Both the position numbers and the translations under genes were made by a program. A DNA stretch of 64,000 bases, taken from positions 5,759 through 69,758 of the forward strand of contig CAVRNL010000015.1 in NCBI GenBank assembly GCA_963722485.1, given 5' to 3'. The notes under the pieces were generated by a model that saw only the letters and a program-made list of their open reading frames with translations, had not been told where the DNA came from and ran no database searches. Below are positions 5,658 through 60,055 of the stretch, in pieces. Within the stretch, counting starts at the first letter, position 1; every line of letters begins with the position of its first letter. The stretch comes from an uncultured Acidobacteriaceae bacterium. GTDB taxonomy: Bacteria; Acidobacteriota; Terriglobia; Terriglobales; Acidobacteriaceae.

Positions 5658-5678
5658 AGACCCGAACCAGTTTGTCCC

Positions 5679-5708: not shown

Positions 5709-5722
5709 TGTGGGGACGGGGC

Positions 5723-17239: not shown

Positions 17240-18616
17240 ATGCGTCGGAATTCTACTATCGTGCTTCTCCCGTTGCTGCTCGCGCTCAGCGTGGCGTGCA
17301 CCAACAAGAAATCGGTGAATCCGCTGGCCAACGTCGGGTCGAAGCAGCCCGACAAGGTGCTGTTTGACCGGTCCATGGATGCCATGAAGCACAACCGCTT
17401 CGACGTGGCGCGAATGACGCTGCAGACGCTGATCAACACCTATCCTGATTCCGAGTTTATCGCGCGGGCTAAGCTGGCGGTGGCCGACTCATGGTACGCC
17501 GAGGGTGGTTCGACCGCGATGCAGCAGGCCGAGATCGAATACAAGGATTTCCGCACCTTCTTTCCCAATATGCCGGAGGCGGCCGAGGCGCAGTTGAAGG
17601 TAGCGAACATCCACTATCAGGAGATGGAAAAGCCCGACCGCGACTACACCCACGCCATGCGGGCAGAGGAGGAATACCGGGCGCTGATTCAGGAGTATCC
17701 CGACAGCAAGCTGCTGCCGCAGGCGAAGCAGCGCTTGCGGGAAGTTCAGGAGGTGCTGGCGGAACGAGAGTTCGGCATCGGCCGTTTCTATTATCTGCGC
17801 ATGGCGTATCCGGCGGCGATTGCGCGCTTGAGAACGCTGGTCGACCGCTATCCGTTGTATAGCGGCGCGGACCAGGCCTTGTATCTGATGGGGCAATCCT
17901 ACGAAGCCGAGATCGAAGTGGTGCGCAAGAACCCGCGCATGGGCGAAGTGGTCAAGGGCAAGATGATCGAGGACTTGACCAAGGACGCGGCCGACGCGTA
18001 CGGAAGGATCATCAAGCGTTATCCGGCGATGGATCGGGCGGTGGATGCCAAGGCGCGGCTGGAGGCACTGCATCAGACGGTGCCGCGGCCGACGCGGGCG
18101 ATGCTCGAACAGAACAAGAAGGAAGTGGCCAGCCGGCATGAAGCCAGCATGATGTCGAGCATGCTGGGCAACTTCGAGAAGCATCCCGACGTGGCCCGGG
18201 CCTCGCGCGTGGGCGAGCCGACGATGGTCGATCCGGAGCCGATGACGGCAACGGACGTGGTGAGAAAGATAAGCAATTCGGTGAGCGGTGGTGACAACAA
18301 GGTCACCGTGGAAACGACGAATGGCACGGTAACGCCGAACCAGGAGGCGCCGCGTTCGGATACCCCCGCAGCCGTGGCAGACCCGGCGTCGGCTGAGTTG
18401 AAGCCAACAGTGGCGGATCCGAATGAACTGAAGCCGAATGTCGAGGCCGATCCGAACGCACTTCCCCCGCTGCAACAGAGTAACCAACTGGATAACAACG
18501 GCGTGGCATCAGGTGCTCTCTCTTCGACTGCCTCGGCGAAATCCGAGGAGATGGCGGATATTTCTTCGACCAAGAAGAAAAAGAAAAAGGGTCTGGGGAA
18601 GCTAAACCCCTTCTAG
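17240..18616 (+). CDS. bamD: outer membrane protein assembly factor BamD-like lipoprotein with long low-complexity tail
   Basis: Lipobox LSVAC. TPR region with TYPDSEFIARAKLAVADSWY and QEYPDSKLLPQA. About 190 aa of tail ending KKKKKKGLGKLNPF. Confidence 0.75.
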   Translation: MRRNSTIVLLPLLLALSVACTNKKSVNPLANVGSKQPDKVLFDRSMDAMKHNRFDVARMTLQTLINTYPDSEFIARAKLAVADSWYAEGGSTAMQQAEIEYKDFRTFFPNMPEAAEAQLKVANIHYQEMEKPDRDYTHAMRAEEEYRALIQEYPDSKLLPQAKQRLREVQEVLAEREFGIGRFYYLRMAYPAAIARLRTLVDRYPLYSGADQALYLMGQSYEAEIEVVRKNPRMGEVVKGKMIEDLTKDAADAYGRIIKRYPAMDRAVDAKARLEALHQTVPRPTRAMLEQNKKEVASRHEASMMSSMLGNFEKHPDVARASRVGEPTMVDPEPMTATDVVRKISNSVSGGDNKVTVETTNGTVTPNQEAPRSDTPAAVADPASAELKPTVADPNELKPNVEADPNALPPLQQSNQLDNNGVASGALSSTASAKSEEMADISSTKKKKKKGLGKLNPF

Positions 18617-18618
18617 AG

Positions 18619-18746
18619 AGGGCAGAGGTTAGAGGTCAGATTGCAGAGGTTACAGGCCTGCGTTTAGGTGCCTCTTGGCTGCGCAATCGTGCATCGCTCG
18701 CTTTCCGCGCTTTTACCTCTGCAATCTGACCTCTGACCTCTGCCCT
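18619..18746. repeat. hairpin with tandem-heptamer arms, CAGAGGT family, copy 1
   Basis: The 32-nt arms AGGGCAGAGGTTAGAGGTCAGATTGCAGAGGT and ACCTCTGCAATCTGACCTCTGACCTCTGCCCT have 1 mismatch, with a 64-nt loop. The element starts 3 nt after the bamD stop. Confidence 0.85.
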
Positions 18747-18868
18747 TGTCCCTCCTCCCCAACAGGCTAGGAACGGAAGTAACCGGTTACCGCTGCGGGA
18801 ACCGTTGACTTCGACTGAGGGACGAGTTAGTTTCGCGTTATCTCTCCTTTTTTGTCGAAGGATGAAGC

Positions 18869-21442
18869 TTGTCGCGGAAAATACTTCTCGCCGATGATAG
18901 TGTGACGGCCCAGAACATGGGGCGAAAAATCCTGGCCGATGCCGGGTATGACGTCGTCACGGTCAATAACGGATCTGCCGCTCTGAAGCGGATCGCCGAA
19001 ATCAAACCGGACCTCATCGTGCTGGACGTGTACATGCCCGGCTACAGCGGGCTGGAAGTGTGCCAGCGCTTGAAGGATTCGGCCGAGACCGAACACATTC
19101 CCGTGCTGCTGACGGTGGGCAAGCTGGAACCGTTCAAGCCGGAAGAAGCGCGCCGGGTCAGGGCCGACGCTCACATCGTGAAGCCATTTGAAGCCAGCGA
19201 GTTGCTGACGGCGATCACGCGCCTCGAAGACCGCATGGTGCCGCAGCACGACGGCACGCGCTTCAGTGCTTCGGTTCCGGGCGTGGAACGGTTTGGCGGC
19301 GAAAGCAACACGGATCCCGATACCGGATGGAAGAGCCGGCTGCGCTTTCCGTCGAAGAAAAAGAAGGAAGAACCGGAAACGGAAGCAGAGGATGCCGCGG
19401 CCGGTGCGACCTTCCGGGATTTCCGCAAAGCAAAAGGCAAGACGGGCGCGAGCGGAGTGTTCGCGGTAAAGGCGCCAGCGCCGCCGGGACAGGAGCCGGG
19501 GCTGGTTCCGGATATTCCGCGCGACATCACGCCCGACGAGTTGGACGCACTCAGCGCCTTGGCCGCGAGGCTCGATGGACCGATTCCGGCTGCCGAGGAC
19601 ATTGCCCCGCTGGCGGAGAAAATGGGCCCCGCAGTTCCGGTGGCACACGCGGCGGCAAAGACGGAAGTAGCAAGAACTGAAGTAGCAAAGACTGAACCGG
19701 AAGTTCCCGCCGCGGCGGCGGAAACGAAAACAGAAGTTGCACCTTCGGCGCCGGCCGTTGAGCCCGCTGCCGCAGCCGTTGCCGCCCCGGCGTTAGCCGT
19801 CGAGGTCCCGGCATTAGCCGTCGAGGCCAAGAGCGAAGTCGAAATTCCGGTCGAGCACACGGAGCCGGCGAGCGAAGTTGCCGCGGCCGAGATGCATCGG
19901 CACGAAACTGAGCCCGAAACTCCGGCTGCGATCGTCGCCGTCGCGGTGAATCCTGCCCCCCTCGCGCAAGAGCCCGCCCCCGTGGACAGGAACGATGAGC
20001 CGATCTTTGCTTCGGCCGCAAGCGCGGTTGAGCAGGCCGCGGAAGACAAGGCCGAACGCGAAACCGAAGAGAAGATTGCAGCGAAACCCGCCGAAGCCAT
20101 CGCCAGCAATGAGGCGGCCGCGGCGAGCGCGCCCGTGGAAGCAGTCGCTGCGCAGGAAGAATCCAAGGGTGGAGAATCGAAGCCGGAAGCACCGAAAACT
20201 CAGGAGTTAAGGGCCGAGAATTTCCAGGCCGAGAATTCCGGGCCCCAAGACTTCGGGAGCGAAGATTTCCGGGCCGAAGACTTGCGGACCCAGGACTTGC
20301 CGGCGGAGCAGGCTGCGCTTCCGGTCCCGGTTGCGGAGAGCGTACCCGAGACGGCGGAGCCGGAAGAGCCGGCGCCGAGCGATGAGGAACTGGCTGAAGC
20401 ATTACGCTTGCTGACACCCTCTACCAGCCACGCGGATGTCTCGGTGGCTCCGTCACACGGAGCCTTGGTGGCGGCTGGCCAGTTGCTGGCGGAAGAAGCG
20501 GCACGCAATGCGGCGGCCGGTCCGCGATGGATGGCGGAGGCGGTGGGGTTGAGTCCGGAGGAAGAGGCGATTTCGCTGGAAGCGGAAATGTTCCGCACGT
20601 TCGCGGCGGAGCCTGCGGCGGCATCCACGGCAACGCCCAGCAGCGAAATCGAACTCACGCCGCTCACCGGAGTTTCAGCGATTGCGGCCGCGATCGAGGA
20701 CAGACTGGCAGCCGCGGAATTGGACGCCAGTGCGAAAGCTGGGCCGGAGCAACAAGAGGATGAACAAGGTTTGTCTGGCCAGCGTTCATCGGAGCATGCC
20801 TCAGACGCCACAGCCCCAGCACCGGTTATGGAAGCGCCCACGGAAGAGATGGCGGCGACTTCGAACACAGCGGCGCCGTCGGTGGACGCAATCGTGCCGG
20901 AGCAGATTGAATCAGCGCAGGTTGAACCAGCGCAGGTTGAACCGAAACAGGTTGAACCCGAGCCGATTGAACCGGAGAAGGTCGCGCAAGAAAAGCACGA
21001 GGCGGAGCAGAGAGATTCTCCGGCGGAAGTCGCGGAGCAAGCGCCGGTGGAAGAGGCTGCGGCAGCGACGTTCGCGGATGCGGTCGGTAAGGACGAGGTC
21101 GAAGCTGCGGCGGCAGAAGAGAATCAGGATTCGAGTTTAGACTCTAGGGGGCAGGAATCCATGGGCGACATGAAAGCGAAATCGGGAAAATCGAACTGGC
21201 ATCAGATCCACACGGCGTCGGCCGGCGCTGCCGCGAGCACTGACGTAGAAACGGCGAAACAGCAGGCCGAGCACGCGCCGGAGGCCCCTCCGAAGGCCAT
21301 GGCGGCAGCAGCGGCGGCACAGGGACCGGCCTCGGTGTCGGCCACCGACGCCAGCACCATAGCCAGCATCGTGGACAGCGTAATGGCCGATCTTCGCCCG
21401 AGGATCGTGGAAGAAATTGCGCGGAAGCTGGCGGGAAAGTAG
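18869..21442 (+). CDS. response regulator receiver protein with about 700-aa Ala/Glu/Pro-rich disordered region
   Basis: REC domain (ILLADDS, DLIVLDVYMPGYSG, KPF). The remainder is low complexity with pentapeptide repeats and a short conserved-looking C-terminal helix. Confidence 0.8.
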   Translation: MSRKILLADDSVTAQNMGRKILADAGYDVVTVNNGSAALKRIAEIKPDLIVLDVYMPGYSGLEVCQRLKDSAETEHIPVLLTVGKLEPFKPEEARRVRADAHIVKPFEASELLTAITRLEDRMVPQHDGTRFSASVPGVERFGGESNTDPDTGWKSRLRFPSKKKKEEPETEAEDAAAGATFRDFRKAKGKTGASGVFAVKAPAPPGQEPGLVPDIPRDITPDELDALSALAARLDGPIPAAEDIAPLAEKMGPAVPVAHAAAKTEVARTEVAKTEPEVPAAAAETKTEVAPSAPAVEPAAAAVAAPALAVEVPALAVEAKSEVEIPVEHTEPASEVAAAEMHRHETEPETPAAIVAVAVNPAPLAQEPAPVDRNDEPIFASAASAVEQAAEDKAERETEEKIAAKPAEAIASNEAAAASAPVEAVAAQEESKGGESKPEAPKTQELRAENFQAENSGPQDFGSEDFRAEDLRTQDLPAEQAALPVPVAESVPETAEPEEPAPSDEELAEALRLLTPSTSHADVSVAPSHGALVAAGQLLAEEAARNAAAGPRWMAEAVGLSPEEEAISLEAEMFRTFAAEPAAASTATPSSEIELTPLTGVSAIAAAIEDRLAAAELDASAKAGPEQQEDEQGLSGQRSSEHASDATAPAPVMEAPTEEMAATSNTAAPSVDAIVPEQIESAQVEPAQVEPKQVEPEPIEPEKVAQEKHEAEQRDSPAEVAEQAPVEEAAAATFADAVGKDEVEAAAAEENQDSSLDSRGQESMGDMKAKSGKSNWHQIHTASAGAAASTDVETAKQQAEHAPEAPPKAMAAAAAAQGPASVSATDASTIASIVDSVMADLRPRIVEEIARKLAGK

Positions 21443-21633
21443 AGCAGCTTCCAGCCATCAGCTTTCAGCTATCGAGTTATCCGCCCGCAATAGTCTGTAC
21501 GTGACGATGTTCCACGTGAAACATGGCACATGTACGTACATTCAGACGGCGGCGGGAGCAAGGCTTTGGCGCACAAAAAAGCGAAACTGCATGGGGCTGA
21601 TCCGGTGCTTCTTAGTCGAGCGTTGGCACCTGG

Positions 21634-22188
21634 TCACGCTGCTGGTGCTCGAAACGATATCTTTCCCCATCCTTCATTGACCCGCACTGGCGCAAGTTCG
21701 TCGAGAAGATAGAAACGATAACTACTCCAGCGCCAATCCTCAGGCGCCTCCGTGAGACCTCGCTTCACCGGATTACGGTGCATATACCGAAGTTTCTCCA
21801 CTCTCTTCTTCTCCGTCCAAACGTTGAAGTCATGGAAACGTGTCTGCCAGAAGGGTGCGCGGGTAGGATCATCCGCAAATAGCCTGCTCTGGCGCGGGTC
21901 GCATGCTTTTTTCTTCGGCAACAAGGCATGGGCCGTGCGCTGTTTCAATACTTGCATCACTGTCGAAGGAGTCCCGACCTCCGGTTCGCTCAGCAGCAAG
22001 TGGATATGTTCCGGCATCACGACATACCCCACCACTACGAAGCGGAAGCGTTTGCGGGTTTGTTCTAACACGGAGAGCAGACGGTCGCGGCTACGAGCGG
22101 AATGCAAAAGTGGCAGGCGGCGATAACAAGAGCACGTGATAAAGTGCAAGTGGTCGGCGCCGTAGAAGCGATGCAGACCGCGAGGCAT
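21634..22188 (-). CDS. REP-associated tyrosine transposase (RAYT, IS200/IS605 Y1 family-like)
   Basis: HUH motif in MPEHIHLL and catalytic Tyr region LRYMHRNPVKRGL. A REP hairpin lies about 30 nt upstream. Confidence 0.85.
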   Translation of the reverse strand: MPRGLHRFYGADHLHFITCSCYRRLPLLHSARSRDRLLSVLEQTRKRFRFVVVGYVVMPEHIHLLLSEPEVGTPSTVMQVLKQRTAHALLPKKKACDPRQSRLFADDPTRAPFWQTRFHDFNVWTEKKRVEKLRYMHRNPVKRGLTEAPEDWRWSSYRFYLLDELAPVRVNEGWGKISFRAPAA

Positions 22189-22218
22189 GACAGAGTTATG
22201 CTATCAGCAGCATCGCGG

Positions 22219-22251
22219 CCCACCCTTGCAAAAAACGCAAGGATGGGGCAC
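22219..22251 (-). repeat. REP, GTGCCCCA-head family, copy next to RAYT
   Basis: The minus strand reads GTGCCCCATCCTTGC-GTTTTTT-GCAAGGGTGGG. Confidence 0.8.
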
Positions 22252-22354
22252 CCACGTTTCTTTTTGGGAAAAAGGAACAGAGTACAGAGAAAGGTGGGCC
22301 ACCCGCCTCCGACGCTTACTCGGTGATCTATGTTGCACCGAATTGGTGGTGACT

Positions 22355-23002
22355 ATGAATTCATGGTATTGCATCGTTCTTCTGCAGCTCACGACGACAT
22401 TGGCGCTGGGCCAACTTGTTCCGCAAACCAAATCTGCCATGGTTGCCGGGGAGCCCGCAGCTATAGTGCGGAGCCTATATCGTGTGGTGGTAGCTCGCCA
22501 CCCGATCGGCCTCCCGTGGGGCGCGGACAGGAAAGCCCTCGCACCCTACCTGAGCAAAGACCTCATCCGCAAACTTGATGCAGCTCAAGCCTGCGGAGCG
22601 GACTACAGTCGGCACCATCCAGACCCAAACGAAAAACCACAAATCGAGTGGCTTGAGCTGGGGCTCTTCTCTGGTGCGAACGAGAACGCTTTGCCTGCCG
22701 CTTTCCACGTTGAAAACGTGTACCCAGAGAAGGATGGCTCCTTTCGCGTGCATTTGAGGCTCACATACAGGGATTCCTATGAAACATACGGACGACCACC
22801 AACTGAGGCGAACACGTTTCGCTGGTACGTTGATGTGATTGTGGTACGGGAAGACGGACACTTCGCTGTTGATAATGTCATCTATCTTAAGGACGAAGGC
22901 GATCCCCGAGATGTTGAACCGCCGCTATCGCAGGTGTTGACTATTGGCTGCGACGGTTCTCGGTGGGTTGGCTACGGCGATGAACGAAACGATTCCAAGT
23001 AA
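22355..23002 (+). CDS. exported hypothetical protein in low-GC cassette
   Basis: ATG 22355 gives signal peptide MNSWYCIVLLQLTTTLALGQ. The longer ORF start would read through the REP. Confidence 0.55.
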   Translation: MNSWYCIVLLQLTTTLALGQLVPQTKSAMVAGEPAAIVRSLYRVVVARHPIGLPWGADRKALAPYLSKDLIRKLDAAQACGADYSRHHPDPNEKPQIEWLELGLFSGANENALPAAFHVENVYPEKDGSFRVHLRLTYRDSYETYGRPPTEANTFRWYVDVIVVREDGHFAVDNVIYLKDEGDPRDVEPPLSQVLTIGCDGSRWVGYGDERNDSK

Positions 23003-23091
23003 GAAAGCGAAGCCGGGTACCCGGTGGAACATCCTAGGGCGCGGATGCTGGTCCCTCACCGCCCTGGAGCAGCATCGGACAGCGCCGACGC

Positions 23092-23406
23092 TTACTCTGT
23101 GATCAGTGGAATCTCGTCCGGGCAGATCGGCTTCTGCTCCAGTTCCTCGGCGAAGTCGAGCAGCACCTGCGCCAGATCGCCGGGCGAACGCAGCCGATCC
23201 GCGCGCGGTCCGTAGTACCACTTCCGGTATCGTTCCAGTTCCAGTTGCAGGCGCAGATTTTCAACGTGGAGATCGTCGGCCCGCTGGGTCTGCTCTTCGG
23301 CCCGCTGTTTCTCGCGGTCGCGCTCCAGCAACAGAGTACGCAGCAGCGCTTGCAGCGCGTCGCGGTCCTCGGGTAGGTTGGCCAGGTTAGGTTCCGCGGG
23401 GTGCAC
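23092..23406 (-). pseudogene. IS66-family transposase TnpC, N-terminal fragment only
   Basis: A leucine-zipper-like N-terminus with LELERYRKWYYGPRADRL, typical of IS66 TnpC. It stops after 104 aa, and the catalytic body is absent. Confidence 0.6.
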
Positions 23407-23441
23407 TTACTATTAGATGTAAGTACAGCGCCGTAGTTATC

Positions 23442-23690
23442 TCAGGCACTCACTTTTTCTTGGTTATCTGGATTGGTTCTCGCTGCGCGTTGGTAGCGCG
23501 GCACACGCTTCAACTTCGAGACATCGATCCCATCCAGGATCATCGCCAACTCGCTCGCGCGCAACTCCACCGACCGCGTCCCCTCGTCCAACCGCCGGAC
23601 AGCCGACGCTGGAGTGGATCTGTTTTTACGCGGCAGGCGATTCGGATTTTCATCTTTGACTGACTTCGCAATGCCCTCCCGTACACTCAC
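23442..23690 (-). pseudogene. possible IS66 TnpB (Orf2) C-terminal fragment
   Basis: ELAMILDGIDVSKLKRVPRYQ resembles the TnpB C-terminus (LLEGIDW-type). Its position just upstream of the tnpC fragment fits IS66 gene order. Confidence 0.4.
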
Positions 23691-23853
23691 GATCTTGAAA
23701 CAGGCGTTGGCGACTGTCTACATTCCCAGTCTACCTCTGCTTGCCTGATAGCTCTTTCTCACCGCGCCCCGCTCGACCCGACCCCAGCCTAGCCTTAGCC
23801 TTCGGTTGGGGGTGTAGCAAAATCCCCTCAGTGCGTATAACCCCGCCCTGCGT

Positions 23854-23883
23854 TTGACCCTTCTTTTCTTGCGCCTGTAAGAT
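23854..23883 (+). promoter_or_regulatory. candidate promoter for valS
   Basis: TTGACC, an 18-nt spacer, then TAAGAT, about 100 nt upstream of valS. Pattern match only. Confidence 0.3.
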
Positions 23884-23983
23884 CAAAGATTCCCTCCTTC
23901 TGCCGGAGATCTGCCGAGCTTCGCTCAGCCTGGACGGCCGGGGGCGGCCGTCCCTACGCAAGTGCTGGAGCTTCACACACAAT

Positions 23984-26824
23984 ATGCCTCACGAATTGCC
24001 GAAAGCTTACGAACCGGGCGCGATTGAAGCGCGCTGGGCCGAATATTGGGTCCGGGAAAAACTGTTTCATGTGGAAACGCCGGCGCCGGGAGATTTGTGT
24101 CCCGTATTCACGCTGCTCCTGCCGCCTCCGAATGTGACGGGCCGGCTGCACATGGGGCACATGCTCAACCAGACGCAGATGGACATCATCGTCCGCTGGC
24201 ATCGCATGCGCGGCCATGTGGCACTCTGGCTGCCCGGCACCGACCATGCCGGCATCGCGACGCAGGTGATGGTGGAGCGCCAGCTTGCGAAGGAAGGCAA
24301 GAAGCGGCGCGACTTGGGGCGCGAGAAGTTTATCGAGCGGGTGTGGGAATGGAAGCGGCAGTATGGCGGCGCGATCCTCGACCAGATGAAGCGGCTGGGC
24401 GCGTCGGTGGATTGGGGCCGCGAGTACTTCACCATGGACGACAACCTGTCGCACGCGGTGAAGGAGACGTTCGTGCGGCTGTATGAAGATGGGCTGATCT
24501 ATCGCGGGAAGTACATCGTGAATTGGTGCCCGGACTGCGGGACCGCGATCTCGGACCTCGAGGTGAAGCACGAGGACGTTCCCGGCAAGCTGTATGAGAT
24601 ACGCTACCCGGTGGTGGGAACGGGGCAGAGCCCCGTCACCACACAGACTGGAGAGCAGGAATTTATTACAGTGGCCACGACCCGTCCGGAGACGATGCTG
24701 GGCGACACGGCGGTCGCGGTGAATCCGAAGGATGAGCGTTACATTCATCTGCACGGCAAGTACGTGATGCTGCCGCTGATGAACCGGGAGATTCCAATCA
24801 TCGCCGACGAACTGGCGCAACCCGAATTCGGCACCGGCGCCGTGAAGGTGACGCCGGCGCACGATCCCAACGACTTCGAGGCCGGACTGCGGCACAACCT
24901 GCCGCAGATCGAAGTGATCGATGAGCACGCCAGGATGAATGCGAATGCCGGCCCCTACGCGGGTCTGGACCGCTTTGCCGCGCGCGAGCATGTGGTCGAG
25001 GACCTCTCCGCGCAAGGCTTCCTCGTGGGCACGAAGGATTACACGATTGCGCTTGGCAAGTGCGACCGCTCGGGCACGATTGTCGAGCCGCGGCTCTCAA
25101 CCCAGTGGTTCGTCAAGATTGCGCCACTCGCCAAGCGCGCGATTGAGGTCGTCGAGAAGGGATACATCCGCTTCACCCCGGAAAATTACGGCCAGATTTA
25201 TTTGAACTGGATGCACAACATCCACGACTGGTGCATCTCGCGGCAGTTGTGGTGGGGACACCGGATTCCGGCGTGGTATTGCACGAACAACGGCTGCAAG
25301 AAAGTGGTGGTGGCGCGCGAGGCGCCAACGGCGTGCCCATGCGGCGGCACGAACTTCGAGCAGGACACGGATGTGCTCGACACCTGGTTTTCGTCGGGCC
25401 TTTTGCCGTTCACGACGCTGGGCTGGCCGCAGGCGACGCGCGATCTGGAAGTGTTCTATCCCAATTCCCTGATGATCACCGGCTTTGACATCCTGTTTTT
25501 CTGGGTGGCGCGCATGATCATGCTTGGTTGCTGGTTCATGATGCCGCCGCACAAGCCGAGTAATAATCCCAGGTTAGCGCCCAGAGAGCAGGCGCGAACC
25601 CGGGGCACAGACTCGGAGGACGATGCGTCGCGGGCAAGCGTTCCCTTTCGCGAGGTCTACATTCACGCGCTGGTGCGCGATGCCGACCGGCAGAAGATGT
25701 CGAAGATGAAGGGGAACGTGCTCGATCCGATCGAGGTGATCGGGAAGTACGGGACGGACGCGACGCGCTTCACTCTGGCGTCGATGGCTGCGCCGGGAAC
25801 CGATATCGCGTTCAGCGAAAGCCGCACAGCGGGCTATCGGAATTTTGCCAACAAGATATGGAATGCCGCGCGCTTCATGTTCATGAACGTGGACCGGGTG
25901 GAACCGGGTTTGCGGCCCGCTAGTGTGGACGCGGGCGACTCGCCCGCGCCAGTTGGAGGCATTGCAAGCTTCCGCCTCGACACGCTCGAAGATCGCTGGA
26001 TTCTCTCCCGCTTCAATCGCGCGGCGAAGGACGTGAACGAATCTCTGCAAACGTACCGTTTCGATGAGGCGGCGAATCGCATCTACGATTTCTTCTGGGG
26101 AGAGTTCTGCGATTGGTACATCGAATTGATCAAACCACGCCTTAATTTCGAGGAAGGCGCGGACTCAGGGCCGGCCAAAGTGGCATGTGCCAACCTCGTC
26201 AATTTATTCGAGGCGGCGTTGCGGCTGCTTCATCCCGTGATGCCGTTCATCACGGAAGAAATCTGGCAGGCAATGTATGATGGCCAGCCGCCGCTGAAGT
26301 CGATTGCGCTGGCGGCGTACCCGACAGCGAATAAGGAGCAGATTGATCTTGGCGCCGAGACGGAGATGGCGATTCTGCAGGACCTGATTGTCAGCGTGCG
26401 CAACCTGCGCGCGGAATTGAAAGTCGAGCCCAAGGTCAAAGTGCCGATTGAGGTGTTTGCGCATGAACCGGCAATGCGCATCCTGCTTGAACAGAACCTC
26501 GCGTCCATTGAGCGGTTGGCGGGCGTCGAGAGAGTCGCGTTCGTGGAGGCTTCGCTGGAGAAGGTGGCAGGAGCGCGCAGCACGTCGCGATTCGATGTGC
26601 ATGTTGTATATGAAAAAAAGATCGACGTGGCGGCCGAGCACGAGCGTCTAACGAAGGAGTTAGAGAAAATCGAGAAGGAGATTGCCAACGGGCAACGGCA
26701 GCTTCTGAATGAACAGTTCTTGGCGAAAGCTCCGCCGAAAGTGGTGGAAGGGCTGAAGACGCGTGCGGAAGAACTGAGAGTGCTGCGGGAAAAAACGCTG
26801 GCGAAGTTGAAAGAACTTACGTAG
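23984..26824 (+). CDS. valS: valine--tRNA ligase
   Basis: [12 protein letters not shown] (HIGH), KMSKMKGN (KMSKS), an editing domain and a C-terminal coiled coil. Confidence 0.95.
25568..25608 (-). repeat. REP, GTGCCCCA-head family, in-frame inside valS
   Basis: The minus strand reads GTGCCCCGGGTTCGCGCC-TGCTCTCT-GGGCGCTAACCTGGG. Its arms are nearly identical to the intergenic copy at 57891-57932. Confidence 0.75.
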
Positions 26825-26945
26825 GGACGGCCGCCCTCGACCGTCCGGTCGAGTGAAGTTCGACGCATCATCGCGACTGCGGCTCTGCGAGCCGCTGGGC
26901 AGGTGAGGGCACCCGCCCCTACGCAAACATCGATTCGCGCAAGCC

Positions 26946-27821
26946 ATGGACTGGAATTCACGACGCATCACCGCAATTATCGAGAACGCGCTGAACGAAG
27001 ATCGAGCGACGAGCGACGCCACCAGCTACGCCTGCATCGATCCCAACCAGCGCGCTTCGGCGACGATTGTCGCCAAGCAGGAGTGCATTCTGGCCGGCCT
27101 CGGATGTGTGCCGCGGATTCTCGACGTCTATGCGGCGCTTGACGGAGCGGTCACTTCGCATTACGAAGTGACCAGCCATCCTTCGATTTTCGACGGCATC
27201 CGCCTGCGTCCGGGGCAGCAGATCGCGGTCATCCAGCATAACGCGCGGGTGCTTCTGTCGTGCGAGCGCGTGATCCTGAATTTTCTGCAGCGCATGGCCG
27301 GAATCGCGACCACCACTCGCAAGTTTGTGGATGCGGTCGAAGGCACGCGCGTGCGCATTCTCGATACCCGCAAGACGGCGCCAGGCCTGCGCGTGATCGA
27401 CAAGTACGCGGTGCGCTGCGGCGGCGGGCAGAATCACCGGCTCGATCTCTCCGACGGCGTGTTGATCAAGGGCAATCACATTGTGCTGGCCGGCGGCGCG
27501 ATTCCGGCGCTGCAGCATGCCATCCACAATCGGCGCGGCCGGCAGCCGGTCGAGATTGAAGTGCGGTCGCTCGAGGAACTGCAGCTGGCGCTCGAAAACG
27601 GGGCCGAGGCGATCCTGTTCGACCATGTAAGCGTTGAGGATGTGCGCAAAGGAGTCGAGATCTGTTCGCGCCACACGCGCCGCATTCCGCTGGAGTGCGC
27701 CGGCGGAATCAATCTGGAAAACGTGCGCTCGTATGCGGAGACGGGAGTCGATTTCATTTCCGTCGGGGCGCTGACGCATTCCTCGACGGTGGATATGAGT
27801 TTGCGGGTGACGCCGGCGTAG
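26946..27821 (+). CDS. nadC: nicotinate-nucleotide diphosphorylase (carboxylating)
   Basis: ILDTRKTAPGLR, IKGNH, and GGINLENVRSYAETGVDFISVGALTHS. Confidence 0.9.
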   Translation: MDWNSRRITAIIENALNEDRATSDATSYACIDPNQRASATIVAKQECILAGLGCVPRILDVYAALDGAVTSHYEVTSHPSIFDGIRLRPGQQIAVIQHNARVLLSCERVILNFLQRMAGIATTTRKFVDAVEGTRVRILDTRKTAPGLRVIDKYAVRCGGGQNHRLDLSDGVLIKGNHIVLAGGAIPALQHAIHNRRGRQPVEIEVRSLEELQLALENGAEAILFDHVSVEDVRKGVEICSRHTRRIPLECAGGINLENVRSYAETGVDFISVGALTHSSTVDMSLRVTPA

Positions 27822-27827
27822 ACCCCT

Positions 27828-27916
27828 GTCGTTGGTCGTTCGTCGCTGGTCGTTCGCTGGGCTGAATCATTCGGGAATTCGATTTGGCCAACGACTAACG
27901 ACGAACGACCAGCGAC
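27828..27916. repeat. hairpin with tandem-heptamer arms, GTCGTTS family
   Basis: GTCGTTGGTCGTTCGTCGCTGGTCGTTCG pairs with CGACTAACGACGAACGACCAGCGAC (about 25 of 28). It starts 7 nt after the nadC stop. Confidence 0.8.
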
Positions 27917-27959
27917 TGTTTATAATCCCTCCATCTCTACTTCCACCAAAACTCGCAGC

Positions 27960-28973
27960 TTGCCGTCCGTGCACAAAGCGACAGACGCTCGTTTGGGCCG
28001 CATCGTCCGCCTGCTCATGGACCACGCCACCGTCGTCGTCAGCGGCACCAAGATTGCCGAAGAGATCGGCACCAGCCGGTCGGAAGTCTGGCGGCTGATT
28101 CAGCAACTGCGCGGCCTGGGCGTGGATGTTGCCGGACATCCGGCGACCGGCTATCAGCTGCGCGCGGTCCCAGACTTGCTGCTGCCGGAAATGTTAGCGC
28201 CGCTGTTGAGGGGCACGATCTTCGGCGATGCCAAGCAGATCCATCACTATTACAAGATCGGCTCGACCAATTCGGAGGCCATGCAATCCGCGGCGGAAGG
28301 CGCGCCCGAGGGCAGCGTGTTTCTTGCCGAAGAACAACTGGCTGGGCGCGGACGCGGCGCGCACGGCTGGCATTCGGCGCGGTCGACGGGAGTTTACTGT
28401 TCGGTGATCCTGCGTCCAGCGATGCCGCCGTCGGATGCGCTGATTTTTTCGTTGGCTGCGGGGCTCGCGGTGCGCGCGGCGGTGGTGGAGATTGCGCCGC
28501 AGCTTTTGGTGGACCTGAAATGGCCGAACGACCTGCTGCTTGGCGGCAAGAAGTTCTGCGGCATTCTCACGGAGATGAATGCCGAGGTAACGCGAGTGCG
28601 CCACCTGGTTGTGGGCGCGGGCATCAATGTGAACCAGGTCAAGTTTCCGGCTGAGCTGCGCGAGATTGCGACGTCGTTGCGCATCGAAACAGGCACGGAG
28701 TGGTCGCGCGTGGAGCTCTGCGCCGCTTTGCTAAAATCGCTCGACCGCGAGTATCGAAGTTTGGTGGAGGATGCGGGAGCGCGAGATGCAATCCTTCGCC
28801 GGTTCGAGGAGAATTCTTCGTCGGTGCGCGGCAGAAAAGTTTCCATCGGCGATGATGGCAACTTGGCCGGTGTTACCGAAGGGTTGGATGAGCGTGGATT
28901 TTTGCGCATAAGGACCGCGGAAGGGTTGCGAACGGTGGTGAGTGGAACGGTGAGGACTATTGAGAATTTGTAA
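27960..28973 (+). CDS. birA: bifunctional biotin--protein ligase / biotin operon repressor
   Basis: N-terminal HTH region, GRGRGAHGWHS, and KWPNDLLLGGKKFCGIL. Confidence 0.9.
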   Translation: MPSVHKATDARLGRIVRLLMDHATVVVSGTKIAEEIGTSRSEVWRLIQQLRGLGVDVAGHPATGYQLRAVPDLLLPEMLAPLLRGTIFGDAKQIHHYYKIGSTNSEAMQSAAEGAPEGSVFLAEEQLAGRGRGAHGWHSARSTGVYCSVILRPAMPPSDALIFSLAAGLAVRAAVVEIAPQLLVDLKWPNDLLLGGKKFCGILTEMNAEVTRVRHLVVGAGINVNQVKFPAELREIATSLRIETGTEWSRVELCAALLKSLDREYRSLVEDAGARDAILRRFEENSSSVRGRKVSIGDDGNLAGVTEGLDERGFLRIRTAEGLRTVVSGTVRTIENL

Positions 28974-29050
28974 TTGGCAATTGGTAATTTGTAATTGGAA
29001 AGGCCGCTGCGCCTAGATCACAAATCACCAATTACAAATTACCAATTACA
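28967..29050. repeat. hairpin with tandem-heptamer arms, TAATTGG family, copy 1
   Basis: TTTGTAATTGGCAATTGGTAATTTGTAATTGG pairs with CCAATTACAAATTACCAATTACA. It fills the birA-coaX gap and contains the birA stop codon. Confidence 0.85.
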
Positions 29051-29053
29051 CAT

Positions 29054-29908
29054 ATGCTTCTCGTCATCGATGTCGGAAACACGAATACGGTGCTCGGCGT
29101 TTTTGAGCGGCTGGCGCACCTTGCGGGCGGGGACGTGACCACGGACGCGCCTCGTTATGAGCGGCTGGTTGCGAACTGGCGCGTCGGCTCCCACCTGACC
29201 CGCACCGTCGACGAATACGGAGTGATCTTCCGCAACCTTTTCTCGATGGACAACCTGGAAGTTTCTGGCGTGCACGGGATCGTAGTTTCGTCGGTGGTGC
29301 CGCCGCTCGATCCCGTGCTGCGGCAGGTGTGCGAGCGCTATTTCAATACCAAGCCGCTGTTCATTGAGCTTGGCGTGAAGACAGGCATGCCGGTGCTGTA
29401 CGACAATCCCGCGGAAGTGGGCGCGGACCGGATCGTGAATGCGGTGGCGGCGTTTGAGAAATTTGGCGGCCCCTGCGTGATTGTCGACTTCGGCACGGCA
29501 ACGACCTTCGATTGTGTTTCGAAGAAGGGCGAGTACCTGGGCGGCGTGATTTGTCCGGGCATTGGAATTTCGGCGGACGCGCTCTTTCAGCGCACCGCCC
29601 GGCTGCCGCGAGTGGAGATTCGCAAGCCCGCCCGGGTGATTGGTTCGAACACGGTCGGCAGTTTGCAATCCGGGCTTTACTACGGCTATCTGGGCTTGCT
29701 CGACGGCGTCCTGGAACGGCTGGTGGATGAACTGGGCGCGGAAACCCGCGTGGTTGCGACCGGCGGACTGGCGTCGCTTTTTGGCACCGCTTCGCACTTC
29801 ATTAAAGATGTGGACGAGTTCTTGACCCTCGAAGGGTTGCGCATCATCTGGGATCGGAACCAGTCCTACCGCCGCGAAGCCGCGCCGAAAGCTTCTAGAA
29901 CGAGGTGA
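29054..29908 (+). CDS. coaX: type III pantothenate kinase
   Basis: MLLVIDVGNTNTVLGVF, VDFGTATTFD, and ATGGLA. Confidence 0.9.
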   Translation: MLLVIDVGNTNTVLGVFERLAHLAGGDVTTDAPRYERLVANWRVGSHLTRTVDEYGVIFRNLFSMDNLEVSGVHGIVVSSVVPPLDPVLRQVCERYFNTKPLFIELGVKTGMPVLYDNPAEVGADRIVNAVAAFEKFGGPCVIVDFGTATTFDCVSKKGEYLGGVICPGIGISADALFQRTARLPRVEIRKPARVIGSNTVGSLQSGLYYGYLGLLDGVLERLVDELGAETRVVATGGLASLFGTASHFIKDVDEFLTLEGLRIIWDRNQSYRREAAPKASRTR

Positions 29909-29913
29909 GAAAT

Positions 29914-29985
29914 CAGAGGTCAGATTGCAGAGGTGAAACCCTGGGTTCTAACCTCTGCAATCTGACCTCTGACCTTTGACCTCTG
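29914..29985. repeat. hairpin with tandem-heptamer arms, CAGAGGT family, copy 2
   Basis: CAGAGGTCAGATTGCAGAGGT pairs perfectly (21 bp) with ACCTCTGCAATCTGACCTCTG around a 16-nt loop. It starts 6 nt after the coaX stop. Confidence 0.85.
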
Positions 29986-29997
29986 TACAAACCTGTC

Positions 29998-30708
29998 GTG
30001 GAAAATTACTTCAACTACTTCACGGAAATCGAAGAGCACTATCTGCGGCGACGAGGCACTCATCTGCTGCTGTCAACTCTGGATTGGGCCCTCATTGAGA
30101 CCTGGAAAAGCGCGGGCGTGCCGCTGGAGGCCGTGCTCCGCGGGATCGATGATGCGTTCGACAAGTACGATCAGCGTCCCTCGAAATCGAAGAAGGTGAA
30201 TAGCCTGGCGTACTGTTCGCAGGCCGTACTGGCTGCGGCCGAAGATATGAAGGAAGCGGCGGTGGGTGCGGCCAGCGAAGAAAAAACTCAACGCGATCCC
30301 GGATTCGAAGCGGCGCAGATTGCAGCGTTTCTGCGAGAAAATGCCGGCAAGCTCGAGAAAGCGAAGCCGCCCGAGCGCGCGGGATTCGCGACCGCAGCGC
30401 TGGCACGGGAAGAAGCGGCCTCGCTGCGTGAGATGGCCGAGGCCATCGAGAGCAGCGGGAAGCTGCCGCGCCTGGAAGATTTGGAGCGGCGACTGACCGT
30501 GCTGGAGGAAAAGCTGTTCGCGGTGCTGATGGCCGCCACCCCGGATGAAGATCTGGTGAATGTTCGCGCGGAAGCCGATCGGGATCTTGCTCCCTACCGC
30601 CGCAAAATGACGGCAGCGCAAGTTGAACCGCTGCACAAGCAGTACATACATAAGCGGCTGCTGGAGCGCTGTGGAGTACCGCGGCTGAGCTTGTTCTATA
30701 TGCACTGA
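29998..30708 (+). CDS. conserved-looking hypothetical protein
   Basis: 236-aa ORF, helical (FTEIEEHYLRRRGTHLLLSTLDWALIETWK). No family recognised. Confidence 0.55.
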   Translation: MENYFNYFTEIEEHYLRRRGTHLLLSTLDWALIETWKSAGVPLEAVLRGIDDAFDKYDQRPSKSKKVNSLAYCSQAVLAAAEDMKEAAVGAASEEKTQRDPGFEAAQIAAFLRENAGKLEKAKPPERAGFATAALAREEAASLREMAEAIESSGKLPRLEDLERRLTVLEEKLFAVLMAATPDEDLVNVRAEADRDLAPYRRKMTAAQVEPLHKQYIHKRLLERCGVPRLSLFYMH

Positions 30709-30744
30709 TGTGGTGTTTCGGATGTTAGGAACATAAATTGGCGC

Positions 30745-30827
30745 TGTCATCCTGAGCGAAGCGAAGGACCTATGCATTCCAGCGCCGCGAGCAAATGCAT
30801 AGGTCTTTCGCTTCGCTCAAGATGACA
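30745..30827. repeat. long palindrome, TGTCATCCTGAGCGAAGCGAAGGACC family, copy 1
   Basis: 34-nt arms with 3 mismatches and a 15-nt loop. Confidence 0.85.
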
Positions 30828-30888
30828 AGACATACCCAGCAAATTCGCGGGCCAAGACACAGAGAGCCCGTGCTAGACGGAAACGTAC

Positions 30889-33041: not shown

Positions 33042-35741
33042 ATGATGCGCACCCTCAAGCCGCCACGGCAGCCGTTGTTCTGGGCCGCCTTGGTATTTTC
33101 GCTCGGTCTGTGGACGGGCGTCCGCGCCTGGCGTCCACCGTCGTGGTGGGTGATCGCCTTAGTCGTCTTCACTTTTGCGGCATCATGGTTTCTTCCCAAA
33201 CGAGCCTGGCTGGCCAAGGCGCTCGCTTTGGGCGCGTGGTTTCTTCTAGGCGCTTTTCTGATTCAGGTTCGCGGTCAGCCGCCGCACGCACTGCAGGATG
33301 ACGCTCGAATTCTCACCCTCGCCGATGGCCGTGAAGTAACTCTTACAGCGCATGTGATGCGTGAGGGCTACTCGCGGTCCGCAGGGCCGCGCTCGATTCG
33401 TGAATCGATTGATGTGGAGACCGAAGAGATCGCGAGCCAAGGTGAAAGCTGGCCGGTGCGAGCCGGAGTGCGGCTGACGATTTACAAGACGGTGGAGGAT
33501 CGGGCCATCGGGTCATCGGAAAATCGGGTGATCGGGCCATCGGGCCATCGGGTGATCGAAGGTCAAGGGCATTTGGATCTCAATGACCCGATCACCCGAT
33601 CACCCGATCACCCGATCCCTCTGACCTACGGCACGCGCCTTCAGATTCTCGCCAAGTTGCACCCCGCGCGCAATTACCGCAATCCCGGAGCCTTCGATTA
33701 TGAAGGCTATCTCCGCGACAACGGCATCAGCGTGCTCGGCTCGGCCGAGGCAACGGACATTTCGCGACTTCCCGGATTTTCCGGCAGCCGCATTCAACTC
33801 TGGCGGACGCGCGTTCATGCCAGCATCGTGGCCAAGATTCACCAATTATGGCCCGCGTCGCAGGCCTCGCTCATGGACGCCATGGTGCTCGGCGAAGAAT
33901 CGTTCCTGCGCAATGCGACCCGCACCGAGTACCAGCGCTCGGGCACGTATCACGTGCTGGTAGTTTCCGGGATGAACTTGAGCATCCTGGCGTTCGCCAT
34001 TTTTTGGACGCTGCGCCAGTTTCGCGTCGATCCCGCGCTGGCCGCCCTCACCACGGTCGTGGTCTCGTTCGCATACGCATTCGTAGTCGGCGTCGGCCCG
34101 CCGGTATGGCGCGCCGCGTTGATGCTGGCAACATACCTAGGCGCGCGTCTGCTCTATCGCGAACGCAACATGATGAACGCCATTGGAGCCGCCGCGCTGG
34201 GAGTTCTGATCGTCGATCCGCATGCCCTGTTTGGCGCCAGTTTTCAGCTCACGTTTCTCGCTGTCTTCATCATCGCCGGCATCGGCTCTCCCATTCTCGA
34301 ACGGACAACGCTGCCCTACGCGCGCGGTCTGCGCCTGTTGCAAGCTGCCAGCTACGATTTGCACTTAGCTCCCAAGGTGGCGCAGTTCCGGCTCGACCTG
34401 CGGTTGATCGCAGGGCGGCTGAAAAGATTCGTCGGCGACCGCCTCAGCCTGGCGCTGCCCGCGATCTTCATGCGGGCAGCCATCGGCGTGGGCGAATTGA
34501 TCTTCATCTCGGCGCTGATGCAGGCGGGACTGGCGCTGCTCATGGCGTATCACTTTCATCGCGCCACCACCATGGGAATGCCGGCCAACATGGCGGTGAT
34601 TCCGCTCACCCAGGTGCTGATGCCCGCTGCCGCCGCCGCCGTCGGCTTGGGATACATCTCGACAGTTCTGGCCAAACCCGCGGTTTGGATCTCCGGCTTC
34701 GCGCTCGAAGGGATTGCGGGAACGGTGCACTGGCTCGGCGGCGCCCAACTCGCTGGAGCATCGATTGCCGATCTGCGCGTAGCCATGCCCACGCTCACGA
34801 TGATTCTGGCTTCGATTGCCGCCCTGGCGCTCGCCATGCTGGCGGCGCAAATCCGTCGCGCGCGCTGGGCCGCGTTCGCTTCCGTGGCGTTGTTGTTCGC
34901 CGTTGCCGGATGGATCGCGTTTTTCCCGTCGCGCCCTCACCTTCACGCCGGCGTGATGGAGATGACCACCATCGACGTCGGACAAGGCGATTCCATTCTT
35001 CTGGTCACGCCCGAGGGCCGCGCCATCCTCATCGATGCCGGAGGCATTCCCCAGTGGATGCATTCCGATTTCGATCTCGGCGAACAGGTGGTCTCTTCGT
35101 ATCTTTGGAATCGCGGCATCGATCGTCTCGACGTGGTCGCCATCACCCATCCTCATGCCGACCACCTCGGTGGAATGCCCGCGGTGATTGCAAATTTCCA
35201 CCCGCGAGAACTCTGGATCAGCATCGACAAACCGGCGGGCGAACTGGCGCCCATCGTTGCCCAAGCCCAGCGCGCGGGAATGAATGTGTCGGTAAAACAA
35301 GAAGGCGATCAATTCGATTACGGCGGAGCGCATTTCCAGATGCTCGCTCCCGGACGCGACCAAATTACCGGCTCGATGCGCCCGAACGACGATTGCCTTG
35401 TGTTTACGGCCAAGTTCGGCGGCACCACCGCTTTACTAGAGGGAGACGCGGAGCGTCCAGCCGAACGGCGCGTCGTCGAAGAGCATCCCGAGGCGATGCT
35501 GCTGAAGGTGGCCCATCACGGCAGCGCCAGTGGAACCTCTGCCGATCTGCTAGCGACTGTTCATCCGCGCTACGCTGTTATTTCCGTTGGTGCGCGAAAT
35601 GTGTATGGACATCCCCGGCGCGAGGTCCTGGAACGGCTGCAGCAAGCTGGCGTGAAAACCTACCGCACCGACGAGGAGGGCGCTATCAGTTTTTACCTCG
35701 ACGGCAAGTCCGTGACTCCGGACGTGGCGCTTCTCCACTGA
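33042..35741 (+). CDS. comEC: DNA internalization competence protein ComEC/Rec2
   Basis: Multi-TM competence domain (SGTYHVLVVSGMNL) and a C-terminal metallo-beta-lactamase domain (ITHPHADHLGG, VAHHGS). Confidence 0.9.
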   Translation: MMRTLKPPRQPLFWAALVFSLGLWTGVRAWRPPSWWVIALVVFTFAASWFLPKRAWLAKALALGAWFLLGAFLIQVRGQPPHALQDDARILTLADGREVTLTAHVMREGYSRSAGPRSIRESIDVETEEIASQGESWPVRAGVRLTIYKTVEDRAIGSSENRVIGPSGHRVIEGQGHLDLNDPITRSPDHPIPLTYGTRLQILAKLHPARNYRNPGAFDYEGYLRDNGISVLGSAEATDISRLPGFSGSRIQLWRTRVHASIVAKIHQLWPASQASLMDAMVLGEESFLRNATRTEYQRSGTYHVLVVSGMNLSILAFAIFWTLRQFRVDPALAALTTVVVSFAYAFVVGVGPPVWRAALMLATYLGARLLYRERNMMNAIGAAALGVLIVDPHALFGASFQLTFLAVFIIAGIGSPILERTTLPYARGLRLLQAASYDLHLAPKVAQFRLDLRLIAGRLKRFVGDRLSLALPAIFMRAAIGVGELIFISALMQAGLALLMAYHFHRATTMGMPANMAVIPLTQVLMPAAAAAVGLGYISTVLAKPAVWISGFALEGIAGTVHWLGGAQLAGASIADLRVAMPTLTMILASIAALALAMLAAQIRRARWAAFASVALLFAVAGWIAFFPSRPHLHAGVMEMTTIDVGQGDSILLVTPEGRAILIDAGGIPQWMHSDFDLGEQVVSSYLWNRGIDRLDVVAITHPHADHLGGMPAVIANFHPRELWISIDKPAGELAPIVAQAQRAGMNVSVKQEGDQFDYGGAHFQMLAPGRDQITGSMRPNDDCLVFTAKFGGTTALLEGDAERPAERRVVEEHPEAMLLKVAHHGSASGTSADLLATVHPRYAVISVGARNVYGHPRREVLERLQQAGVKTYRTDEEGAISFYLDGKSVTPDVALLH
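33497..33618. repeat. hairpin with tandem-octamer arms (ATCGGGNN units), in-frame inside comEC
   Basis: The left arm has 7 units of ATCGGGNN. The right arm is GACCCGATCACCCGATCACCCGATCACCCGATCC. The outer GGATCGGG/CCCGATCC pair closes a 122-nt element. Confidence 0.8.
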
Positions 35742-35848
35742 AATAAGGCCAGGTTTCAAAGTTTCAAGGTTTCAATGTTTCAGCGTCGCTTTCTGATGTT
35801 CAGACATTGAAACTCTGAAACTTTGAAACTTTGAAACCTGGCCTTATT
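35742..35848. repeat. hairpin with tandem-octamer arms, GTTTCAAN family
   Basis: AATAAGGCCAGGTTTCAAAGTTTCAA pairs perfectly (26 bp) with its complement, and the pairing continues imperfectly. It spans exactly from the comEC stop to the stop of the convergent gene. Confidence 0.85.
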
Positions 35849-36546: not shown

Positions 36547-36595
36547 AGACTATCGATGGAGAGACGGGTGCCCATGCCCGTACAACTGAAGCCGG

Positions 36596-36636
36596 GTGCC
36601 CCATCCTAACGTCGTGCCTTTCGACGTTAGGGTGGG
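36596..36636 (+). repeat. REP, GTGCCCCA-head family
   Basis: GTGCCCCATCCTAACGTCG-TGCCTTT-CGACGTTAGGGTGGG. It shares GTGCCCCATCCT with the RAYT-adjacent copy and lies between convergent genes. Confidence 0.8.
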
Positions 36637-36705
36637 ATTCCAACGCCGCGTGAAGCTGGGGATTTCCCCGGAAGTTGAGGAACATGAATTGTCCCGCTGC
36701 AGGAT

Positions 36706-37467: not shown

Positions 37468-37512
37468 GCAGCCGAGCACTGAACCGTAGATCGCCGCGCC
37501 TGGCGCAAGAAT

Positions 37513-37606
37513 CCAGCCCCGGCAGGGGCGAGCTACCTTAGCCCCGCGCTTCAGCGCGGGGTGGGCTCGGAAAAACCGGCGCAGTCCCGGAGGGACGACC
37601 CAGTTC
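37513..37606 (+). repeat. about 94-nt dispersed repeat, copy 1
   Basis: About 80% identical by eye to 57303-57395 in the same orientation. Contains CCCCGCGC-TTCA-GCGCGGGG and GTCCCGGAGGGACGACCC. Confidence 0.8.
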
Positions 37607-37657
37607 CTGCGGCGACTTTTCAAACCCTGAGGCAATCGGCTCATGCTCCCCGGCAGA

Positions 37658-39996: not shown

Positions 39997-40059
39997 TTGA
40001 TCTCGTGTTGATGCCTCAGCCAGTGTCGTACCCCGTCAATCTGGAACCAAGGTATGGAT

Positions 40060-40143
40060 TGTCATCTTGAGCGAAGCGAAAGACCTATGTATTTTGCTTG
40101 CGCTGCCGGAATGCATAGGTCCTTCGCTTCGCTCAGGATGACA
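40060..40143. repeat. long palindrome, TGTCATCCTGAGCGAAGCGAAGGACC family, copy 2
   Basis: 34-nt arms and a 16-nt loop, lying between hldA and hldC. Confidence 0.85.
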
Positions 40144-40170
40144 GCGTAGATTTGCTCGCGCTGCGCTACT

Positions 40171-60013: not shown

Positions 60014-60055
60014 ACCAGAATCCGGTAGAATAGAAAGCATTCTCCCGGAGGGGCA

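Follow-up and report, generated by a model that had tools for sequence, protein, structure and literature searches.

Short palindromic repeats that lie in frame within bacterial protein genes have been published, genes for aminoacyl-tRNA synthetases among them. Di Nocera et al. 2013 (PMC3733652) report repetitive extragenic palindromes (REPs) inside genes of several species, the decorated proteins including GlyRS-beta and IleRS, and Blanc et al. 2007 (PMC1779305) describe an insert derived from Rickettsia palindromic element (RPE) 7 in Rickettsia pheT, the gene for a PheRS subunit. Here we describe a 42-nt REP-like palindrome, termed type A, in frame in valS, the gene for valine--tRNA ligase (ValRS), within a 64,000-nt stretch of DNA from an uncultured Acidobacteriaceae bacterium (contig CAVRNL010000015.1; hereafter the window, whose numbering is used unless another stretch is named). 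valS is taken to be an essential gene. Published REPs in the GlyRS and IleRS genes and a published RPE in a PheRS gene establish the kind of event, to which the valS palindrome adds a clear new case.

The family to which this palindrome belongs shares with the described systems of REPs and REP-associated tyrosine transposases (RAYTs) an imperfect palindrome of small size whose head is conserved, a dispersed and mostly intergenic distribution, inverted copies that flank a RAYT gene (the REPtron arrangement) and a minority of copies in frame in known proteins. It differs in its head, GGTGCCCC, which is without the GTAG/CGTC tag (PMC3733652). Beside this GGTGCCCC-headed family, what is new is the host phylum, the hosts here being Terriglobia (Acidobacteriota), the valS target, the holding of one loop in sister lineages by three subfamilies and their remnants, and the presence of REPs in frame inside their own RAYT.

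A first-pass annotation of the window had likened the valS palindrome to the RPEs. As an analogy the parallel is sound, since both are in-frame palindromic inserts that leave the open reading frame (ORF) intact, both occur in functional, essential proteins including an aminoacyl-tRNA synthetase or a subunit of one, and both are read as tolerated surface additions (PMC1779305). As a statement of membership it does not hold: RPEs (families 1-8 of Rickettsiales) measure 100-150 bp and the pheT insert 63-84 bp (PMC1779305), against 42 nt for type A in another phylum, and no sequence relationship was found. Rickettsia have reduced intracellular genomes, whereas the hosts here are free-living soil bacteria with large genomes, and for type A a cognate transposase can be identified. 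Miniature inverted-repeat transposable elements (Correia/NEMIS, RUP, Nezha and the like) are 70-300 bp long and have terminal inverted repeats and target-site duplications. Type A is like them a small non-autonomous repeat found occasionally in frame in coding sequence, but it is a single 42-nt hairpin without visible duplication.

Tyrosine transposases of the TIRYT/TIRtron type, flanked by inverted repeats, have been described in the acidobacteria T. saanensis, K. versatilis, A. capsulatum and G. mallensis, and in K. versatilis one TIRYT-flanking repeat forms a repeated family (PMC3733652). They resemble the type A system as acidobacterial RAYT-like Y1 transposases flanked by inverted repeats; they differ in that the same paper reports no intragenic copies of TIRYT repeats. 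The published TIR motif GGGGWSAS (PMC3733652) was considered as a counterpart of the type A head; the head complement GGGGCACC fits it inexactly, departing from it at positions 5-6.

The type A palindrome, its family and RAYT

valS (23984-26824, plus strand) is an intact ORF of 946 residues, assigned by NCBIfam equivalogs (NF004349, 1191 bits against a cut-off of 704; TIGR00422, 1055 bits against 612), by homology to the T. thermophilus ValRS structure (1GAX) and by its AlphaFold2 model. The type A element occupies 25568-25609 on the minus strand and supplies 14 codons of the open frame, encoding ValRS residues 529-542. Its minus strand reads GTGCCCCGGGTTCGCGCCTGCTCTCTGGGCGCTAACCTGGG over 25568-25608, while a second copy, intergenic at 57890-57931 on the plus strand, reads GTGCCCCAGGTTCGCGCCCGTTTTTTGGGCGCTAACCTGGG over 57891-57931. 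Re-reading both strands reproduced exactly the sequences quoted in the first-pass annotation, and the checks that it had proposed on orthologs, structure, repeat family and other coding copies all favoured its reading of a REP-type palindrome in frame in valS. The likeness to the intergenic copy exceeds chance. The two copies pair over 42 nt at 88% complementarity in a repeat search of the window, in which an 18-nt pattern of head and arm gives 3 matches (0.37 expected) and a 15-nt tail pattern likewise 3 (0.21 expected); both are predicted to fold as hairpins, at -25.7 kcal/mol (z = -3.6) and -33.9 kcal/mol (z = -5.0). The intergenic copy, clustered with other repeats between relA/spoT (54993-57233) and a secreted-protein gene, matches the type A consensus at 41 of 42 bases. 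The valS copy matches at about 37 of 42, with a changed loop and one stem pair replaced by a G-T wobble; it is a slightly or partly decayed copy, probably an older one. An Rfam search of positions 20000-30000 matched no family.

That the valS arrangement is an artefact of assembly or binning, for instance a chimeric join through the repeat, has a negligible probability in our judgement: the identical protein is recorded from two sources and a 98% variant from four contigs, the same in-frame element recurs in independent NCBI, ENA and JGI assemblies, and the ORF runs without a break and yields the model of a full ValRS. Nothing was found in favour of an artefact.

The type A consensus is GGTGCCCC-AGGTTCGCGCC-(9 nt)-GGCGCTAACCT-GGG. 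Scanning one genome per GTDB species with the pattern AGGTTCGCGCC-N5-9-GGCGCTAACCT returned at least 146 copies in at least 120 stretches of about 60 metagenome-assembled genomes (MAGs), with unrelated flanks; retrieved DNA stretches are designated by L numbers, and ValRS proteins of the alignment described below by P numbers. Among the matches listed, the hosts are Terriglobia MAGs with the exception of one labelled Bryobacteraceae, the unit is 42 nt long in 129 of 146 copies, and most copies are intergenic, being spanned only by short stop-free stretches. A single MAG holds at least 14 copies. Information content falls sharply at -9 and +4, which delimits the unit as GGTGCCCC + 31 + GGG; within it the head is conserved at 87-99% per position and the stem comprises 8 + 6/7 bp.

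With a modal length divisible by three and no stop codon in 4 of its 6 frames, the unit on insertion adds 14 residues and leaves the ORF unbroken. Long ORFs spanning copies were compared with Pfam, and a copy was counted as intragenic only inside a matched domain. At least 9 of the 146 listed copies are in frame by this measure: in ValRS (L073), a PMT_2 glycosyltransferase (L018), a GT2/GT21 glycosyltransferase (L058), an RlmI-like methyltransferase (L076) and within RAYT genes (as SQVSAQRTGANLGH; two copies each in L060 and L112, one in L126). In L016, L017, L019, L045 and others, copies are spanned by long stop-free stretches that gave no Pfam hit at the element; these were left uncounted, as were copies near urocanase (L046) and a secreted CarboxypepD_reg protein (L123), which lie upstream of the true starts.

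Type A copies are associated with RAYT genes. In L112 inverted type A copies at 3509-3550 (plus) and 4324-4365 (minus) enclose a RAYT ORF at 3617-4288 (plus), and in L126 copies at 5013-5054 (plus) and 5828-5869 (minus) enclose one at 5132-5752 (minus); the third RAYT with internal copies, likewise flanked by type A, lies at 242-925 (minus) of L060. RAYT scores on NF047646 (NCBIfam 'REP-associated tyrosine transposase') of 105.2, 105.4 and 98.4 bits exceed the cut-off of 80, which the genes with internal copies pass too; those copies lie between the HUH motif, MPEH(V/I)HLLL, and the catalytic-Tyr region, YxHRNPV, and leave both intact. L112 and L001, the latter with a type A copy in valS, come from the same MAG, SPRUCE 290.

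The window has an intact RAYT gene of its own (21634-22188, minus strand, 184 residues; NF047646 105 bits, cut-off 80; HUH motif and catalytic-Tyr region present) 1.8 kb upstream of valS. Immediately 5' of its start lies a GGTGCCCCA-headed hairpin that is related to type A but different from it (22217-22252, minus strand; GGTGCCCCATCCTTGCG...GGGTGGGCC). Together with 16 flanking bases (52 nt in all) this hairpin recurs identically at 3406-3457 of L005, where it precedes a frameshifted RAYT pseudogene; on its 3' side the window RAYT has no REP to match, as far as a search showed. Between RAYT and valS, a short ORF at 23092-23406 (minus strand) resembles by eye an N-terminal IS66-family transposase or accessory protein.

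Structural setting and states of the ValRS loop

The palindrome lies in a hypervariable, lineage-specific loop of ValRS (residues 519-552; 25538-25639, plus strand) that is a hotspot of insertion and runs between helix 501-518 and strand 555-561, that is, between the FFWVARM helix of the Rossmann fold and the strand preceding KMSK. The alignment to 1GAX breaks here, from query residue 519 to 553 against chain residue 507 to 510, so that 1GAX has two residues where the window ValRS carries its extra segment. The spacing from FFWVARM to KMSKS is 40 residues in 89 of 111 distant ValRS representatives, 46, 52, 58 or 80 in scattered lineages and 72 in the window protein, a range that marks the site as naturally tolerant of length. 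The AlphaFold2 model (built on 114 sequences; mean predicted local distance difference test score, pLDDT, 93) superposes on 1GAX with a template-modelling score of 0.87 (Foldseek), and its lowest pLDDT values (75/54/80) fall across residues 521-550, consistent with a surface loop. The segment of about 35 residues had been proposed as foreign to the ValRS core, and the break against 1GAX and the spacing of 72 as against 40 support this; the element does not account for all of it, since only 14 of the approximately 33 extra residues derive from the repeat and the remainder is a variable loop also present in repeat-free relatives.

Alignment of the 120 nearest ValRS proteins (83-100% identity; Terriglobales wherever named) shows invariant loop flanks, with ...GCWFM upstream and a 14-residue block downstream, while the loop itself occurs in discrete states. 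The type A peptide ...NPRLAPKERARTWGTD... is present in 7 of the 120, a type B peptide ...PTLNASKSEAFRMGHPDSED... in 13 and a type C peptide, MPRVPHSFASSANKWENVDD, in one; shortened type B loops read PHRMVHTDSEE and PTLNARHPDS, and plain loops without an element comprise 20-28 residues. At the DNA level type A is found in valS of the window, L001, L005, L007 and L073; the L001 and L005 copies are near-perfect, those of the window and L007 decayed. The loops of L002 and L128 carry type B, another palindrome (GGGTGCCCCATCCTAAACGCCTCGCTTTTTGAGGCGTTTAGGGTGGG, minus strand), and that of L003 carries type C, a third one (GTGCCCCACTCATTCGCGTCCTCTGCGAATAAGTGGGAA, plus strand). Of type B only the head (GGATGGTGCAC) is left in L006, the hairpin having been deleted in frame, and the P0106 loop is a type B whose centre has been deleted in frame. 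Folding revealed no palindrome in the valS loop DNA of L004, L129 and L130, and relatives at 83-88% identity are likewise free of it. L001 and L004 differ by a clean insertion of 14 codons (42 nt), PPHKPGSN[...]DADEDALR as against PPHRPGES/VADGEDALR, and comparison of this filled site with the palindrome-free one showed no target-site duplication.

These states bear on the idea that the segment is an ancient lineage-specific loop whose likeness to the palindrome at 57891 is coincidental, the reading that the first-pass annotation had named as fatal to its own. An extra loop of 18-26 residues is indeed common to all 120 close relatives and to a representative of 67% identity, but the 42 nt themselves are absent from close relatives and agree, in every part and at both ends, with a family that numbers at least 146 copies, and we give the idea almost no credence. 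The common loop forms PSRSSETSLATGE and PGRSSEKSLATGSAAEE were tried as decayed REPs and are not claimed as such, neither giving a convincing palindrome. In a metagenomic valS (L146, Ga0074044_10000713) the loop is longer, PTLNGPALDR-PTLNASKSEAFRMGHP-ESVRRASEDQ, which suggests from its sequence a partial duplication or a second insertion beside type B. The palindrome-free valS of L004, which encodes P0019, has an IS200-like Y1 transposase gene (PF01797; 9191-9514, minus strand) some 500 bp upstream.

Types A, B and C share the head GGTGCCCC(A) and have unrelated stems. The reading frames of types A and B differ relative to the head, and their head-side junctions coincide. Dispersal is seen for type B too: of 34 metagenome sequences matching its head and arm, about 14 fall in valS and some 20 elsewhere. 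blastn-short located further type C copies in L058 and L098. Since the stems are unrelated, the frames differ and type C stands on the opposite strand, this loop must have received at least three independent insertions.

On a bootstrap neighbour-joining tree (150 replicates; ValRS alignment with the loop removed) the type A carriers are monophyletic in 0 of 150 replicates; the clades of P0001, 2 and 3 (145/150) and of P0004 and 6 (150/150) are solid. Carriers and non-carriers form sister pairs (P0103, type A, with P0104, 148/150; P0107, type C, with P0077, 149/150), and so do elements and remnants (P0063, type B, with P0106 and P0046, type B, with P0025/26, each 150/150). Such a distribution requires several gains, several losses or the transfer of loop patches. 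The last of these could account for the patchiness if short valS patches, donated by related lineages or by other genomic copies, had been exchanged by homologous recombination or gene conversion after one or few original insertions. The downstream flanks of L001 and L005 are almost identical (GATGCGGATGAAG/AATGCGCTGCG) even though P0103 groups with its palindrome-free sister, and the common head-side junction of types A and B would fit as well; yet the unrelated stems and frames of A, B and C, with C on the opposite strand, call for at least three separate insertions regardless, and no patch of raised identity surrounds the element beyond the generally conserved core. We regard patch exchange as the main cause of the distribution as possible but rather unlikely.

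Mobilisation, passenger or function

We think it likely that the valS feature is a REP-type element that was mobilised by RAYT, inserted into a permissive surface loop of ValRS and carried there as a decaying passenger. In such a course the RAYT transposase (HUH/Y1) would mobilise the short palindrome as single-stranded DNA, and the hairpin would insert into a surface loop whose structure tolerates extra residues. Being 42 nt long and stop-free, the insert would leave ValRS intact and so escape purifying selection; the 14 residues would be translated as a probably disordered peptide, and the copy would now be slowly decaying. As the loop tolerates changes of length in many bacteria, the copy would not be purged, and the 14-residue segment is most likely a tolerated passenger. 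In sister lineages the same loop would have been hit repeatedly by other GGTGCCCC-headed hairpins, some of them later deleted. Indirect evidence of mobility comes from presence and absence at the orthologous valS site in sister lineages and from copies at many unrelated sites. The repeat family, its link with RAYT, the in-frame state, the polymorphism among close relatives and the place in the loop are shown directly by the sequences and models.

Several observations weigh against this account. Transposition, the action of RAYT on the hairpin, the neutrality of the peptide and the translation of the segment are deduced from sequence, no event having been observed. The head is GGTGCCCC, whereas the REP superfamilies described in PMC3733652 have GTAG or CGTC. 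The scattered distribution could in part result from recombination of loop patches between lineages and not from repeated transposition. Type A copies in the valS genes of L001, L005 and L073 are identical at 41-42 of 42 positions, while the adjacent loop codons, immediately upstream, are merely 75-88% identical and the genes 83-86% overall (67-73% at third positions), and type B of L002 differs from that of L128 by a compensatory change of a T-A to a G-C pair. The near-identity and the compensatory pair hint weakly at constraint or gene conversion in place of neutral decay; recent independent insertion is a further possible cause.

Taken further, the same observations, with the near-invariance of type B in about 14 metagenomic valS loci, would make the hairpin a functional one under selection, as an RNA or DNA structure or as a peptide that serves ValRS, with roles such as translation pausing, mRNA processing or stability, or a RAYT recognition site in a safe harbour. 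We judge this improbable. The window copy retains 36-37 of 42 positions and that of L007 31-36 of 39, with the stem broken or shortened, in L132, L137 and L147 single changes break the stem, and close relatives lack any palindrome or have lost it by in-frame deletion (L006, P0106). Three unrelated stems in both orientations occupy the site, which implies that no common sequence or peptide is required there. A case for strong constraint on the DNA from the 42/42 identity was considered and lowered to suggestive: near the loop the background identity already stands at 0.88-0.96, the neighbouring catalytic core being itself 88-96% identical in a sliding window, and L073 and the metagenome loci were picked by exact-match patterns (L073 by an exact-arm search), which biases the comparison and leaves the signal of constraint weak. 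We therefore retain the tolerated passenger as the preferred account of the type A segment.

Further hairpins and the meaning of the repeats

valS of the window holds two smaller, GC-rich in-frame hairpins, both at variable loops of lower pLDDT. ACGGGGCAGAGCCCCGT (24620-24636), within a TGQSPVT insert at residues ~212-219 that few relatives have, belongs to a dispersed family of the form GGACGGSC...GSCCGTCC, of which the 1.46 Mb of collected DNA contains about 43 copies. GCGGGCGACTCGCCCGC (25931-25947) encodes part of DAGDSPAP at residues ~650-657, a variable loop of low pLDDT in which relatives carry AGLRPAL or DGAEPRPH hairpin inserts. Over residues ~212, 650 and 725 the inserts of relatives comprise AGLRPAL, DGAEPRPH, GLRPGGGQECPPYT and FGFAQNRLRP (L005 11981-12046, 12239-12304 and 10649-10717; L007 2174-2275). 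Around the start and stop of valS lies a 35-nt inverted repeat (89%; 23932-23966 and 26812-26846) of GGACGGCCG...CGGCCGTCCCTAC hairpins, and the related peptides GRGRPSLR and GRGRPLHT form N-terminal extensions or inserts in P0024 and P0119.

Elsewhere in the window, a GGTGCCCCA-headed hairpin related to type B (36595-36639, plus strand) stands before the 3' end of a convergent ORF (36706-37758), and no homology-confirmed gene covers it. A further repeat family, TGTCATCCTGAGCGAAGCGAAGGACCTATGCATT with its inverse, is abundant and makes up the long hairpins of 30735-30836, 40051-40153 and 57959-57992; one of its sites adjoins the intergenic type A copy, and the related FGFAQNRLRP is in frame in the L005 ValRS. 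The window is unusually rich in other intergenic palindromic or tandem repeats (18611-18749, 29900-29990, 33498-33617, 35742-35848, 27827-27916 and 59967-60014), with such units as CAGAGGT, ATCGGG, GTTTCAA and CGAACGA.

A bolder proposal, which we consider improbable, is that the ValRS loop and at least two further valS loops have been landing sites again and again, throughout Terriglobales, for a whole superfamily of hairpins that bear the GGTGCCCC head and are mobilised by RAYT, and that the hairpins are kept near consensus by selection or gene conversion. If this were true, the valS hairpins would not be mere junk; they might serve, for instance, as a sheltered store of REPs or as a regulator of valS at the RNA level, and the entry of REPs into the ORF of their own RAYT would be part of one biology with them.

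Closely related lineages have the ValRS loop filled, filled otherwise, reduced to a remnant or free of a palindrome, and together they make up a natural series for the gain, persistence and removal of a peptide. The repeats account for length heterogeneity and for odd low-complexity peptides in Terriglobia proteins, and RLAPKERARTWGT, QVSAQKTGANLGH and PTLNASKSEAFRMGHP are motifs for annotation and alignment pipelines to heed. The valS palindrome extends in-frame REP insertion to a REP family that lacks the usual GTAG or CGTC tag and to Acidobacteriota, a phylum that is abundant in soil and whose REP/RAYT systems have barely been described.

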